64,000 nucleotides of DNA from a virus (taxonomy: Duplodnaviria > Caudoviricetes). This document shows, piece by piece, positions 79-36,796 of the stretch. The position numbers and the translations under genes were made by a program. The stretch lies in the IMG/VR virus record IMGVR_UViG_3300036984_000039, positions 43,547-107,546 of that record; one strand, written 5' to 3'. The notes beneath the pieces are model-generated. The model saw only the letters and a list, made by a program, of their open reading frames with translations. It searched no databases and was not told where the DNA came from. The stretch's first letter is position 1; each line of letters opens with the position of its first letter.

Positions 79-312
79 TCAGGCGTTGGGTACAACAGTA
101 AATTCAATGCCAATGGCGTCAGCCGAAAGCGCCGCAAAGGCAGCGCGGGCCACGACCGATGCCGCAGCCAGCCGTTCGTATTCGGCTGGCTCAAGCGCGT
201 CGACAGCTTCGTGCAACAACAGGCCGAAGTTGTCTACGACGACGCGCAGGCTCTCCATATCAACAGCATGGCTGTCAGACAGCGTGACCCGTTTGGCGTA
301 GAGTGGTGGCAT
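79..312 (-). CDS. Small hypothetical protein downstream of structured leader RNA A
   Basis: ATG at 312 preceded by AGGAG; ends in hairpin aacgcccgacc/ggtcaggcgtt (about 62-87). Confidence 0.6.
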   Translation of the reverse strand: MPPLYAKRVTLSDSHAVDMESLRVVVDNFGLLLHEAVDALEPAEYERLAAASVVARAAFAALSADAIGIEFTVVPNA

Positions 313-490
313 AAGAAAAGCTCCTGTGCATTCGTCCGGGAGACGACCTAGCCGACAGACAGACTCGCGCCGGGTAGCGCTTGGCAATCGGTCGGCTCCC
401 GACGAACGAACAGGAGCCTTATCTGTCTGTCTACTGCGTACTGTCCCTCGTCCTCTGCCAGTTCCCAGGCTGGCGTCGTCAGTTCAGCAC
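313..490 (-). ncRNA. Structured leader/antisense RNA, copy A (c4/CI-like architecture)
   Basis: Homologous to 29468-29640 with compensatory changes in several stems; follows sigma70 promoter at 497-526. Confidence 0.7.
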
Positions 491-496
491 GTTTCT

Positions 497-526
497 ATCT
501 TATCACAACTCGCTTGGAAATGTCAA
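497..526 (-). promoter_or_regulatory. sigma70-like promoter (TTGACA-N18-TAAGAT)
   Basis: Near-consensus hexamers upstream of RNA element A. Confidence 0.6.
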
Positions 527-27454: not shown

Positions 27455-28099
27455 TCATCTGGCGGCCTTACTGCTCCTACCATCCCCAGGCCGATAATCA
27501 ACAATCTTATCGTGCTTGCTGCAATTGCAGGACTTGCAAAGCGGCTGAAGGTTATCGATGGTATGCGATCCGCCTTTTGACAAGGGTACAATATGATCTT
27601 GCGTGATATTCTCTGACGAACCACATCGAAGACAGACGTTCCCGTAATGGTTACATAACTGCATCCATGCAGACTCGGAAACGACTCCACCAGCCCCCTT
27701 CTTTCTAGCTCTCCGCCGTCTGTGTGCCTCTCTTAGCTTATCGACGTTAGTCTTCTGCCATTTCCTTACCGCCTCCAAACATCGTCCCGGATGCCGCAAG
27801 TAGTATCGTCCCGGATGCCGCAAGTGGTACAGGCGATCATTTGCTTGCTTTTTGTCGGGGTTGTTTTTCGCCCACTGTCGAGACCTTTCTCTATCCCTAA
27901 CGGCTATTCCAGGATACCGTTCGCGTTGCTTCTCGTTGATCTCGTCCTTGTTTTTTGCGCGCCATTCGCGTTGATAAGCGGCATGTTCAGCCCTATTTTC
28001 CTGTCGCCAAATCCTTGAACGTTCTCTCCCGCATGGCGCGCATTTCCCGTTTTTCAACCATTCAGACGAACCACATCTAGGACATATCTTAGTAGCCAT
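27455..28099 (-). CDS. HNH endonuclease
   Basis: CLRCG...TQDHIVPLSKGGSHTIDNLQPLCKSCN; internal 24-nt tandem duplication. Confidence 0.9.
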   Translation of the reverse strand: MATKICPRCGSSEWLKNGKCAPCGRERSRIWRQENRAEHAAYQREWRAKNKDEINEKQRERYPGIAVRDRERSRQWAKNNPDKKQANDRLYHLRHPGRYYLRHPGRCLEAVRKWQKTNVDKLREAHRRRRARKKGAGGVVSESAWMQLCNHYGNVCLRCGSSENITQDHIVPLSKGGSHTIDNLQPLCKSCNCSKHDKIVDYRPGDGRSSKAAR

Positions 28100-28158
28100 T
28101 TGTCCAATTCCAAGTAAAGCGCGCAATACCGGCACAGCGCCAAAAATACTGTTCCTGC

Positions 28159-28465: not shown

Positions 28466-29467
28466 TCATCGCGCGTACCATAGGCGGCTCAACGGCACGC
28501 CGCAAGACACCAAGACGGGCGGTAGATGGTCGCTCAACTTGGCGGGTATGAAGGGGCGCGTGTACCAGCGATACGACATGGACAGATGAGAAAGATCGGA
28601 TGTCGGAAGGGCCGTCGAGTTCTGCGAGCAGCGGTGCGCCGGCAAGGGCTTTTTTTCTGCGTGCATGTGGGTCGCCAAACGGCGACGGCGGGTCTGTGTG
28701 CGTGGGCGGGAAAGTTGATTGATAATCTGTCCAGGGCGTAGGTCGCGGGTTGGGAAGTAACTATTGGCAAGCTGCCAAACGATAAGGTAGACCTCCTGAC
28801 AAGTGCGACGATGTTCGATGAATTCAGCCAAGCGCGTAGACGAGAATAGTCGGCCACATTCGCAGTGCATCTCGTGCGGACGTTCCGGCATATCGTGCAG
28901 CGTCTCCGGCAAGGTGAAAGCCCAGTTCGACAGGTGTTTGACGCCGGCGCGGCGTTCCCAATTGCGCAGGGTAGTGGCGGTGACGCCGAACGCCGCGATG
29001 AGCCGACTGCGCGGGATGGGCGCAGCGCGCACTTCGCGATAACCGGCATGTGTGACGACTTCGGGCATGGGCAGCCAGCCGGCAAAGCACAAGGCGTTGA
29101 AATGGTGTAGGCTGGCGAGTTCGGGCAGCGGGATTAGGATGGGCGATACTTCGGCCTGGGCGTCGGTGGCGATCTGCGCCAGCACGTAATTGGGGTTACG
29201 CACATAGAGGCGGGCGTGCTTGGCGTCCACGTCCCACCAGATACCGTCGCCGCGCTGTAGCAGGTGTTTCGTCCAGCGCCGTGAGACACCGAATGCTTCA
29301 TGGGCGGCGTACAGCGCCTCTACCTGGGTCAACCAGCGGCGCGCGCCTTGCCGGTCGTGCAACAGGGCATACAGGCGATGCTCGGCGGCTTGCCCGGCGC
29401 GCACGGCATGGCGAAAGAGTTCTGGCTGTACGCGGATGGCGGGCGGGTTGGCGGGATCGTCGGGCAA
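28466..29467 (-). CDS. HTH/Zn-containing protein, possibly replication initiator
   Basis: FGVSRR and FGVTATTLRNWE HTH-like segments; TTG start after AGGAG. Confidence 0.45.
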   Translation of the reverse strand: MPDDPANPPAIRVQPELFRHAVRAGQAAEHRLYALLHDRQGARRWLTQVEALYAAHEAFGVSRRWTKHLLQRGDGIWWDVDAKHARLYVRNPNYVLAQIATDAQAEVSPILIPLPELASLHHFNALCFAGWLPMPEVVTHAGYREVRAAPIPRSRLIAAFGVTATTLRNWERRAGVKHLSNWAFTLPETLHDMPERPHEMHCECGRLFSSTRLAEFIEHRRTCQEVYLIVWQLANSYFPTRDLRPGQIINQLSRPRTQTRRRRLATHMHAEKKPLPAHRCSQNSTALPTSDLSHLSMSYRWYTRPFIPAKLSDHLPPVLVSCGVPLSRLWYAR

Positions 29468-29640
29468 AAGAAAAGCTCCTGCGCGCTGCGGTGGTGCCGA
29501 CTAGCCGACAGGAAGCTTTCGCACTTGCTGAGGGTGCTAGGCATTATCGGCCTCACCGCAACGGGTAGGAGCCTCGCTTCCTGTCTACTGCACTTGTGGC
29601 ATTCACCAGTTCAGCGGACTGGCAACCTTCACCTCAAGCG
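29468..29640 (-). ncRNA. Structured leader/antisense RNA, copy B
   Basis: Paralogue of 313-490 with covariation; promoter TTGACA-N16-TATAAT at 29647-29674. Confidence 0.7.
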
Positions 29641-30293
29641 TCTTTGATTATATCACAACCTGCCCGTTTGTCAAGAGGCAGTTTTGCGCATCACGCGGCG
29701 CGTTCCTGCTAGGCGTCGCGCAGCGCCTCGTTGAGCGTGAGATTTTGCATCACGCGTTCTCATCTCCATCGGCCCGGCTTGCCACGCACAGCGCGGCCAT
29801 GATAAGCGTACCGCCGATAGCGCCGATAACTGCTGCGGCCAGGACGGTCAACCACGTAGGATCAGGCATTCTCGTCTCCATCGGGGTCTTCGTCCAGGCG
29901 CACCGGCTCGCGCAGGATGGCGTAAGACGGAGAGATCATGTAAGCATTATCCGAGAAACGCTTGATTATCATTTGAGGCGTCCAATCGACAAAGCCGCGC
30001 GCGACGAGCAGGTTTTGCAGGGTGAACCACTGCTCGGCAGCCGCGCAGACGATCTCGACTTCCGGGCGGCAGCCATATGATACGCGGGTGCGGGAAAGGG
30101 CCAGCGATTGTTGTGCGTTCATTCTACACCATTCTGTCTGAGCAGCCAGGTCAAGCGCGCCACTTCGTCGGCCAGGGCGTCGCGCTCGGCAATCAAGCCC
30201 TCACGTTGCAGCCGCAGCGCCTCGAACATGCGTTGCGCATGTAGGGTTGCCGCGTGCGCGCTGACATCCGGCGCGGGTTGGGGTTCGGTGGGC

Positions 30294-35557: not shown

Positions 35558-35848
35558 ATGCCACGACCGCGTAAGGCGCAGCCTGAGACAGCCGAGACCG
35601 GCGCTCAGGCTGTTGTTTTTCAAGAGGACATTCCCGCAGATACCCTGGTCGCGCCGTTAGCGCCAACCGAAGCACCCGAACCAGTCGCCGCCTTCTACAG
35701 CGTCGGCGTGCGCAACCGCTGCCCGTGGGCCACCGTGCGCAGCGCCAGCACAGATTGGGGGCGCACACCGACCATCATCCGGGCCGACGATGCGCGCCTG
35801 AACGAACTGCAACGCTGCGAATGGCTGCTGGTCGCGCCTGTACCGTGA
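35558..35848 (+). CDS. Small Mu-type head-region protein
   Basis: RBS GGAGG; position in late operon. Confidence 0.5.
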   Translation: MPRPRKAQPETAETGAQAVVFQEDIPADTLVAPLAPTEAPEPVAAFYSVGVRNRCPWATVRSASTDWGRTPTIIRADDARLNELQRCEWLLVAPVP

Positions 35849-35856
35849 GGTTTGAT

Positions 35857-36309
35857 ATGGGACTACTCGACACAATCCTGGGCAAGTCCTGGGTGGCGCA
35901 CTTCTTCAATCCCAACCACGTGCGTGCGGGAAGTCCGACAGGTGGACAGTTTACGTCAGGTAAGGGCGGGGCGTCCGAAGTAGGTAAGCAGACGGGGCGC
36001 AATAAAACTGGCCGAGAGCAAGACCCACAAAAAACCGCTAATATGTTGCGCAAGGCCGGTTGGCGCGTAGAGCACTATCAGGACAAATGGACGGCGGAGG
36101 CAGGTGTACAAATGGGCCGTCCCGGCAAGCGCGCGACGCTTACCTATGATCGCACGAAGGACGAGTATGTCGGCAATGCCATTCATCGCGCCGACAATCA
36201 GGATAAGGGCGTGTGGCATAATCGCGGCAGCGATGGTGACGCGATGGCGCGCAAGCTGCACAAGTGGCTAACCGACAAGACGGCCACTGACACACTCGCG
36301 GAGGATTGA
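35857..36309 (+). CDS. Motif-tagged putative head cargo protein
   Basis: LLDTILGKSW...FNPNHVRAGSPTGGQF. Confidence 0.6.
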   Translation: MGLLDTILGKSWVAHFFNPNHVRAGSPTGGQFTSGKGGASEVGKQTGRNKTGREQDPQKTANMLRKAGWRVEHYQDKWTAEAGVQMGRPGKRATLTYDRTKDEYVGNAIHRADNQDKGVWHNRGSDGDAMARKLHKWLTDKTATDTLAED

Positions 36310-36332
36310 CTTATGGCAACAGGGTCTGGGTC

Positions 36333-36445
36333 AAAAGCAACGAGACGGGATTGCTCCCGCCTCGTTATCCGTACCTGGCCGTGCCGGGCCGTGCCAACGC
36401 CTAACCGCGCCTTGCCCAACCCTGTCCCGCCGTGCCGCGCCATGT
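36333..36445 (-). ncRNA. GGY-NN pentamer small RNA (putative gapped-code guide RNA)
   Basis: 14 units at 36371-36441; promoter TTCACG-N17-TATACT (36452-36480); terminator AACGAGGCGGGA-GCAA-TCCCGTCTCGTT-GCTTTT. Confidence 0.8.
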
Positions 36446-36493
36446 AAGGCAAGTATAACACAAAAGATGCAATTCGTGAAACGGAGGTAGTCC

Positions 36494-36796
36494 GTGGCAA
36501 CAGGTTCTTGGAACGCTTATAGTTCAGCAGTTCACACCGCGCCGACCGTCGCGGTTGGCACGACCGCGGCGCTCGCGGCCAACGCCAGCCGCACCTATGC
36601 GCTGTTCATCAACGACGCGGATGAAGTGATCTATCTCGGCCTGGGCGTGGCCGCGGTCGCGAACAAGGGCGTCCGGCTGAACGCCAACGGCGGATCATAC
36701 GAAATGTCGGCGGCGCTCGGCAATCTGTACGCCGGCGCGGTCAACGCCATCTGCGCGAGCGGAGGCAAGCTCTTACTCGTCACCGAGGCGACGTAG
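36494..36796 (+). CDS. Small virion structural protein (homologue targeted by the adjacent RNA)
   Basis: GGAGG RBS; ALAANASRTYALFIND...IYLGLG...GVRLNANGG. Confidence 0.75.
   Translation: MATGSWNAYSSAVHTAPTVAVGTTAALAANASRTYALFINDADEVIYLGLGVAAVANKGVRLNANGGSYEMSAALGNLYAGAVNAICASGGKLLLVTEAT

Follow-up and report, generated by a model that had tools for sequence, protein, structure and literature searches.

We found that a phage genome from sediment carries two diverged copies, A and B, of a compact mRNA leader, and that this leader is a real, strand-specific and internally covarying structured RNA with two predicted folds that should exclude each other. One fold is a long hairpin that buries the Shine-Dalgarno (SD) sequence and ends in a U-tract; the other is a long-range clamp between two complementary segments, here called a and a', that lie far apart in the leader. 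With moderate confidence, we propose that both copies are probably co-transcriptionally decided, bistable cis-regulatory mRNA leaders, in which the clamp would be the ON state and the hairpin the OFF state. The window (the whole stretch of DNA that was analysed, 64 kb) is the final part of a virus record of 107,546 bp, listed in IMG/VR as complete, and the source phage is present in sediment metagenomes, with no RNA run among the sequencing runs listed for it. The genes sampled encode a terminase, a portal protein, a protease, a ligase, a DnaB-like helicase, a methyltransferase, SbcD, an FtsK-like protein and a TnpB-type transposase, and no lysogeny module, integrase or repressor was found among them. 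The transposase gene (381 aa, TnpB/IS605-type, phrog_506, E = 4e-94) lies at genome positions 35614-36756 on the minus strand, within a leftward gene array.

Copy A reads on the minus strand from a near-consensus promoter through a leader of ~180 nt to the ATG of a 77-aa open reading frame (ORF), and its transcription start is predicted at ~490 (Table 1). All motifs that an earlier note had read from this strand lie where it placed them. The 5' domain is closed by a predicted helix of 6-7 bp which is found in both copies with unlike sequences, at modest z-scores of -1.9 and -1.2. The 5' arm of the long hairpin opens with GGCTCCT at 418-412, and its inner pairs join CGACC (394-390) to GGTCG (348-344) and GCC (385-383) to GGC (353-351). 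With ~29 pairs between 420 and 317 and a folding energy of -59.2 kcal/mol, the stem is longer than first described, and it does bury AGGAG as the earlier note had said. The exact complementarity that the note had seen between a bulge of this stem and an upstream segment was confirmed over 10 nt (431-422 with 363-354), and the pairing continues through GGCU to the AGU of the upstream block. The whole leader A folds better than shuffled sequence (z = -3.1). Since the 3' end of ORF A overlaps a terminator hairpin, the copy A unit should be monocistronic; the product of ORF A has no family match in Pfam or PHROG.

Table 1. Positions in the window of the elements of both leader copies and of the genes that follow them
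Feature	Position	Strand	Description
Promoter A	497..526	-	TTGACA, 18-nt spacer, TAAGAT, TG upstream of the -10; 10/12 consensus matches
5' domain A	437..491	-	predicted closing helix 491-485 with 443-437, capped by hairpin 1
Hairpin 1	474-457	-	GCCAG 474-470, loop CCTGGGAA 469-462 (CCUGGGAA in the RNA listing), CTGGC 461-457
Conserved block GCAGTA	437-432	-	directly before segment a
Segment a, copy A	431-422	-	GACAGACAGA; 5' strand of the clamp
Long imperfect hairpin A (OFF, proposed)	317..420	-	5' arm 420-390, apical junction, 3' arm 348-317
Hairpin 2	380-367	-	GCGC-TACCCG-GCGC
Segment a', copy A	354..363	-	TCTGTCTGTC (UCUGUCUGUC in the RNA listing); 3' side of the apical internal loop; 3' strand of the clamp
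Shine-Dalgarno AGGAG	325-321	-	in the 3' arm of the long hairpin
U-tract and start codon A	310..319	-	TTTTCTT 319-313 directly after the stem, then ATG 312-310
ORF A (77 aa)	79..312	-	acidic, helical; GC by codon position 0.73/0.42/0.62, coding-compatible
Intrinsic terminator after ORF A	87-62	-	strong; hairpin overlapped by the 3' end of ORF A
Promoter B	29647..29674	-	TTGACA, 16-nt spacer, TATAAT, TG extension; 12/12 consensus matches
Leader B	29465..29640	-	5' domain 29640-29591; long hairpin 29575-29472, -55.1 kcal/mol
Segment a, copy B	29585-29576	-	GACAGGAAGC; after GCAGUA
Segment a', copy B	29516-29507	-	GCUUCCUGUC
SD block and start codon B	29481-29468; 29467-29465	-	start codon TTG
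ORF B (333 aa)	28466..29467	-	downstream of copy B; weak MerR-type HTH at 158-173

The second copy was located independently at 29640-29468 (minus strand) through a weak blastn match to the SD block, and a covariance model built from copy A only retrieves it with 55.8 bits (E = 5e-13). Across the whole genome, a covariance model built from both copies matches only these two sites, and a descriptor scan of the genome and of the relatives' loci returned no further SD-burying long hairpin. Copy B lies directly downstream of a same-strand operon, and the whole leader B also folds better than shuffles (z = -3.4). The ORFs behind the two leaders show no similarity, and a paralogous relationship between them was rejected. 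The 333-aa protein of ORF B has no Pfam or PHROG family, finds only itself among 5.8 billion proteins and nothing in a PDB sequence search, and its AF2 single-sequence model is unusable (pLDDT 32). Its atlas neighbours, by embedding and structure, are winged-helix proteins of the replication-initiator type (HTH_36, DnaD_N, RepL-like). HNH genes are found near both leader copies, for example at window positions 27455-28135.

Comparison of the two copies shows which parts of the leader are held constant. Identical in both are the promoter spacer motif GTTGTGATA, which promoter A has in common only with promoter B, the blocks GCAGUAGACAG, AGGCUCCU and CUGUCGGCUAG, and CAGGAGCUUUUCUUwUGCC at the SD, while the linkers and the middle of the stem are unalignable. 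In a structure-guided alignment, which holds two paralogues of one genome only, so that shared ancestry inflates the apparent conservation, standard pairs occupy 97% of the pair cells, compared to 34-40% when the partners are slid by 1-3 columns. Nine pairs score as double changes, of which six belong to the long stem, two to a/a' and one to hairpin 2, and a tenth, a third a/a' pair that went from A-U to C-G, is masked by an alignment gap. The claim of the earlier note that the structure covaries across the two copies is thus borne out, by ten double changes of which three are in a/a'. When the sequences were shuffled, the 5' flank and the apical region shared a perfect 10-nt complementarity in ~0.3% of cases for each copy (P ~0.003). 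The sole perfect target of each a' in the 107.5-kb genome is its own upstream a, and no second target near ORFs was found with up to 1 mismatch. The transcribed strand folds better than its complement in both copies (-60.9 vs -52.9 and -56.7 vs -54.4). A contact between loop 1 and loop 2, which the note had also proposed, is statistically weak overall: it consists of 5 Watson-Crick bp in copy B (P = 0.014) but of 4 bp including a G-U in copy A (shuffle P ~0.1).

According to nearest-neighbour predictions, on which all energetics given here are based, the two folds would be dominant at different times of transcription. When prefixes of the nascent leader were folded, the full a/a' helix was part of the minimum-energy fold from the synthesis of a' to nt 167 of ~180 in copy A and until nt 152 in copy B, and the long hairpin became the best fold only past these points. 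The clamp comprises 10 bp, and a conserved AGU/GCU extension on the far side of an A-G mismatch brings it to 13 bp. In the clamp state, a/a' closes a three-way junction, and the anti-SD strand sits in a local hairpin within the closed loop. A full-length leader with the clamp enforced lies above the ground state by 12.6 (A) and 12.9 (B) kcal/mol, and refolding of the early fold into the hairpin along a direct path would have to cross a barrier of 23.4 (A) and 30.2 (B) kcal/mol; the paths modelled are pseudoknot-free, so the true barrier may be lower. In the free ensemble, the unpaired probability of the SD is 0.000 (A) and 0.010 (B). With the clamp enforced it rises to 0.12-0.17, with the SD mostly in a small weak local hairpin formed with the U-tract and the start codon. 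In the ground state, the unpaired probabilities of a and a' are 0.29 and 0.80 in copy A and 0.25 and 0.33 in copy B. Segment a is separated from the base of the long stem by 2-3 nt, and a' sits at the top of the stem, ~29 bp off; from this geometry a and a' should be unable to pair while the stem stands. The exclusivity of clamp and hairpin would thus be geometric and topological, with no strand of the hairpin directly sequestered by the clamp.

The hairpin of the ground state looks like an intrinsic terminator. It has an 11-bp perfect basal stem within a structure of -59/-55 kcal/mol, followed by UUUUCUU(A/U)UG, and the U-tract matches or exceeds those of other terminators of the phage in U content. 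The 19-mer at its end (CAGGAGCTTTTCTTwTGCC in DNA) recurs in unrelated bacterial genomes (loci L020, L024, L029, L048 and L052), and in several of them, for example at L020, L048 and L052, it forms the descending arm and U-tract of plain hairpin terminators. Since the hairpin is terminator-like and also holds the SD in its arm, the OFF state would stop transcription before the ORF and would hide the SD on any transcript that reads through.

From the folds, their energies and the compensatory changes, we infer the following assignment of the two states, the termination and the trigger. Each copy would act as the 5' leader of an mRNA transcribed from its own strong sigma-70-type promoter. During transcription, a' would emerge ahead of the 3' arm and pair with a just 5' of the hairpin base. 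This ON clamp of 10 or 13 bp would enclose the entire 5' arm and leave the SD in a weak local hairpin only; with the 5' arm in a closed loop and the 3' end held by polymerase, the long hairpin should be unable to wind. A putative factor that masks a or a' may tip the RNA into the OFF state. In that state, which is the thermodynamic ground state, the ~30-bp hairpin with AGGAG in its 3' arm, followed by UUUUCUU and the start codon, would block ribosome binding. The conserved half of the clamp, GCAGUAGACAG / CUGUCGGCUAG, is the likely recognition site of such a factor: the invariant 11-nt blocks make up the outer half of the clamp and the inner half covaries, which suggests a common factor that reads the invariant sequence. 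The leader is a candidate for a new riboregulator family that would work like known attenuators and SD-sequestration switches.

Parts of this design are found in known systems. Like classical attenuators and riboswitch platforms, the leaders have a GC-rich stem and a U-tract just upstream of a gene, together with an alternative helix that is predicted to form earlier and to exclude the stem. Unlike in classical attenuators, the alternative helix shares no nucleotides with the terminator stem and instead encloses its 5' arm, and neither a leader peptide nor a T-box element nor a conserved aptamer core was found in the leaders. In the 5' UTR of the MS2 maturation gene, a transient structure delays the long-distance pairing that locks the SD (PMC4615214). 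The leaders are similar in that the SD is locked at equilibrium by an upstream complement and an earlier transient structure, here in silico, would keep the nascent SD open. In contrast to MS2, in which the trap is a small metastable hairpin that causes a brief delay, the leaders have a clamp of 10-13 bp and belong to a DNA phage, with a promoter and a terminator-like hairpin. As the predicted barrier for the clamp exceeds 20 kcal/mol, the leader RNA would be bistable rather than delayed.

The earlier note had read the leader as an RNA-based immunity or attenuation switch akin to the c4 and CI antisense RNAs of phages P1 and P4. An attenuation or translation switch is indeed the best reading in silico, with an RBS-burying leader and a covarying pairing that should exclude the hairpin, but kinship with c4 and CI is not supported, and the likeness to them is one of regulatory logic. 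Antisense RNAs of this family sit in immunity operons of temperate phages, before icd/ant-type or replication genes, and besides the upstream site they have a target that either overlaps the RBS of the next gene or lies further downstream (a2/b2 in P1, seqC in P4); RNase P processing yields a stable ~77-nt trans-acting RNA. P1 c4 blocks icd/ant expression (PMC8198154), and P4 CI RNA, by pairing with seqA and seqC, brings about the early termination of its own leader transcript before the replication genes (PMC4825925). As in P1/P7 c4 and P4 CI, our elements are sense-strand phage leaders with segments complementary to sites in their own leader; the specificity segments of those systems differ between heteroimmune relatives, and the a/a' sequences also differ between copies A and B. 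Unlike in c4 and CI, the single target lies upstream of the hairpin and not at the RBS, the downstream proteins are not Icd- or Ant-like, and the complementary pair competes with a giant SD/terminator hairpin of the same molecule. When the whole window was searched with cmscan, 0 Rfam matches were returned, and scans of 1-1500 and 29300-29800 with the cut-off relaxed to E = 10 gave no C4, isrK or SeqA-type family; miRNA-type matches were dismissed, as they reflect nothing more than a long hairpin. The C4 model RF01695, whose gathering threshold of 45 bits defines membership, has one match of 13.7 bits elsewhere in the whole 107.5-kb genome and none at the leaders. Membership of the leader in the C4 (RF01695) family is thus not supported.

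Gifsy-1 IsrK, a small RNA that acts on the longer, read-through form of its own transcript and has alternative structures named A and B (PMC4825925), is a further point of comparison. As with IsrK, one promoter is predicted to give either a short terminated RNA or a read-through mRNA, with two alternative structures, one of them translationally inactive, and a terminator between leader and ORF. The short IsrK RNA activates translation in trans and the two IsrK structures differ by local helix swaps, whereas in our leaders the SD lies in the terminator arm and the clamp is long-range; no similarity to IsrK, by sequence or covariance model, was found at the leaders.

These precedents, P1 c4 (PMC8198154) as well as P4 CI and IsrK (PMC4825925), support an alternative which we regard as unlikely, namely that the leader works in trans on its own transcript, as c4, CI and IsrK do. 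The a' segment and loop 2 of a terminated or processed leader in the hairpin state would then pair with a and loop 1 of a nascent transcript, and pairing before the nascent a' is made would force the terminator-like, SD-hidden state, resulting in dose-dependent self-repression; because a/a' and the loop sequences differ between the copies, there should be no cross-talk between A and B. Consistent with this, a and a' are largely unpaired in the ground state of copy A and less so in copy B, the hairpin and U-tract would release a stand-alone RNA of ~175 nt, and the two contact pairs have the same 5'-to-3' order on both partners, like two-site antisense systems. Each of the three positions at which a differs between the copies has a matching change in a'. 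However, the compensated a/a' changes are no commoner than those in the long stem, and drift under a purely cis constraint thus explains them. In addition, neither C4 nor related Rfam models match either copy, no second target was found at the RBS or downstream, the two loops of copy A are weakly complementary, and a target and an antisense segment on one molecule would titrate each other. The genes sampled also give no sign of a temperate lifestyle.

A bolder form of this idea, which we consider rather improbable, is a self-propagating switch. The a' and loop 2 of OFF molecules would bind a and loop 1 of transcripts still being made from the same copy and turn these OFF as well, so that they are terminated and untranslatable, and each copy would sense the dose of its own transcript. 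Copies A and B would then be two orthogonal channels, one of them gating a putative replication-initiator gene, in a lytic-looking phage. If true, the element would be a sense-strand analogue of plasmid copy-number antisense control, unrelated to c4/CI.

The leader may also be a static element, that is, an RNase III site, an mRNA-stabilising structure or a terminator for upstream read-through, with a/a' as a mere folding intermediate. Classical RNase III substrates are known from phage leaders (lambda N, the T7 early sites and lambda cIII), and ~29 nearly continuous bp is the size of such substrates. The position of copy B behind a same-strand operon would suit a terminator for read-through, but copy A has no upstream same-strand operon to terminate and faces a divergent promoter. 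Moreover, a static element leaves unaccounted for a hairpin-crossing 10-bp helix that is kept through three double changes and flanked by invariant 11-nt blocks beside unalignable linkers. The retention of this helix and of these blocks is hard to explain without selection on the alternative fold, and we consider a static element improbable.

A riboswitch is very improbable. The clamp would be its P1, and together with a local hairpin of the 5' arm and hairpin 2 it would form a three-way-junction aptamer, with the long hairpin as expression platform. The junction of the clamp-state fold would fit such an aptamer, and riboswitch expression platforms typically combine a terminator with SD sequestration, which counts in its favour. 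On the other side, the junction strands differ between the copies (region GACCGAUUGCCAA vs GAUAAUGCCUA, two sequences being compared), a P1 of 10-13 bp far exceeds the length in known riboswitches, no Rfam riboswitch scores above noise (Guanidine-III reaches 14.5 bits against a cut-off of 36 bits), and the regulated genes are non-metabolic. We give next to no weight to a DNA-level feature (a replication origin, a cruciform or protein-binding inverted repeats): copy B does precede a gene with winged-helix, replication-initiator-like structural neighbours, and every helix is also an inverted repeat in the DNA, but both copies begin at a promoter and stop exactly at an SD and start codon, G-U pairs let the transcribed strand fold better than its complement, and the repeats covary instead of conserving sequence, which favours base pairing over a protein-binding site.

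In the collections searched, the leader is known from one sediment-phage lineage, with no homologues beyond near-identical sediment strains. No homologue was found by blastn in GenBank phages or by DNA patterns in IMG/VR, and the IMG/VR protein loci retrieved for both ORFs and for a 65-aa neighbour were empty or chance. A pattern search of metagenomes gave 9 matches, all in unrelated coding DNA, and patterns run on genome contigs gave 0 and then 33 chance matches, none of which fits the covariance model R2. The same model found nothing in five records of TerL relatives at up to 51% identity, all of these records being fragments. One sediment run (X2) holds an identical strain. A 311-nt contig (X5) carries a ~92%-identical variant of promoter and leader A with 19 substitutions, in which loop 2 has gained 2 nt and hairpin 1 has lost 1 nt. 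Two further sediment relatives, X3 (a 5,669-nt contig) and X4, align over 528-1056 and are wholly different below the -35 of promoter A. This points to a moron-like swappable cassette (1-527) made up of the promoter, the leader, the 77-aa ORF and the terminator.

The surroundings of copy A hold several further elements. Divergent to promoter A, a promoter on the plus strand (592-620; TTGACA, 17 nt, TATACT) opens the stretch 592-862, in which ~230 nt contain no ORF of at least 30 aa and end in a terminator-like hairpin at ~823-853. On these grounds 592-862 is a candidate stand-alone non-coding RNA; it is ~94% conserved in X3 and X4, both of which are without the copy A cassette, and no Rfam family matches it. 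A role as trans partner of the leaders was rejected, with a complementarity no better than shuffles for copy B and marginal for copy A. Exactly between the divergent promoters lies a 22-bp perfect palindrome, GAATGTTTCACGTGAAACATTC (561-582), which occurs once in the genome, has a 1-nt deletion in the relatives and may be an operator. An operator common to both copies was rejected, as the palindrome is absent near copy B. A 65-aa protein encoded on the minus strand (868-1065) has a hydrophobic N-terminus and six homologues of 73-85% identity on other sediment-metagenome contigs and is thus a good marker for relatives of the phage. Left of the window start, ~480 nt (genome 43124-43599) between the ORF A terminator and the next minus-strand gene contain no convincing ORF and may be another untranslated or structured region.

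Our preferred reading of the leaders as bistable cis-acting switches, if confirmed, would establish a new family of phage riboregulators that unites a hairpin hiding the SD, an end resembling a terminator and a long-range clamp of very high stability, and in which the clamp excludes the hairpin by enclosing one arm and not by strand sharing. The two diverged copies in one genome are a natural compensatory-mutation experiment and allow a test of specificity between A and B. The element is compact (~180 nt), promoter-proximal and self-contained, and the two copies may also serve as an orthogonal pair of RNA switches.
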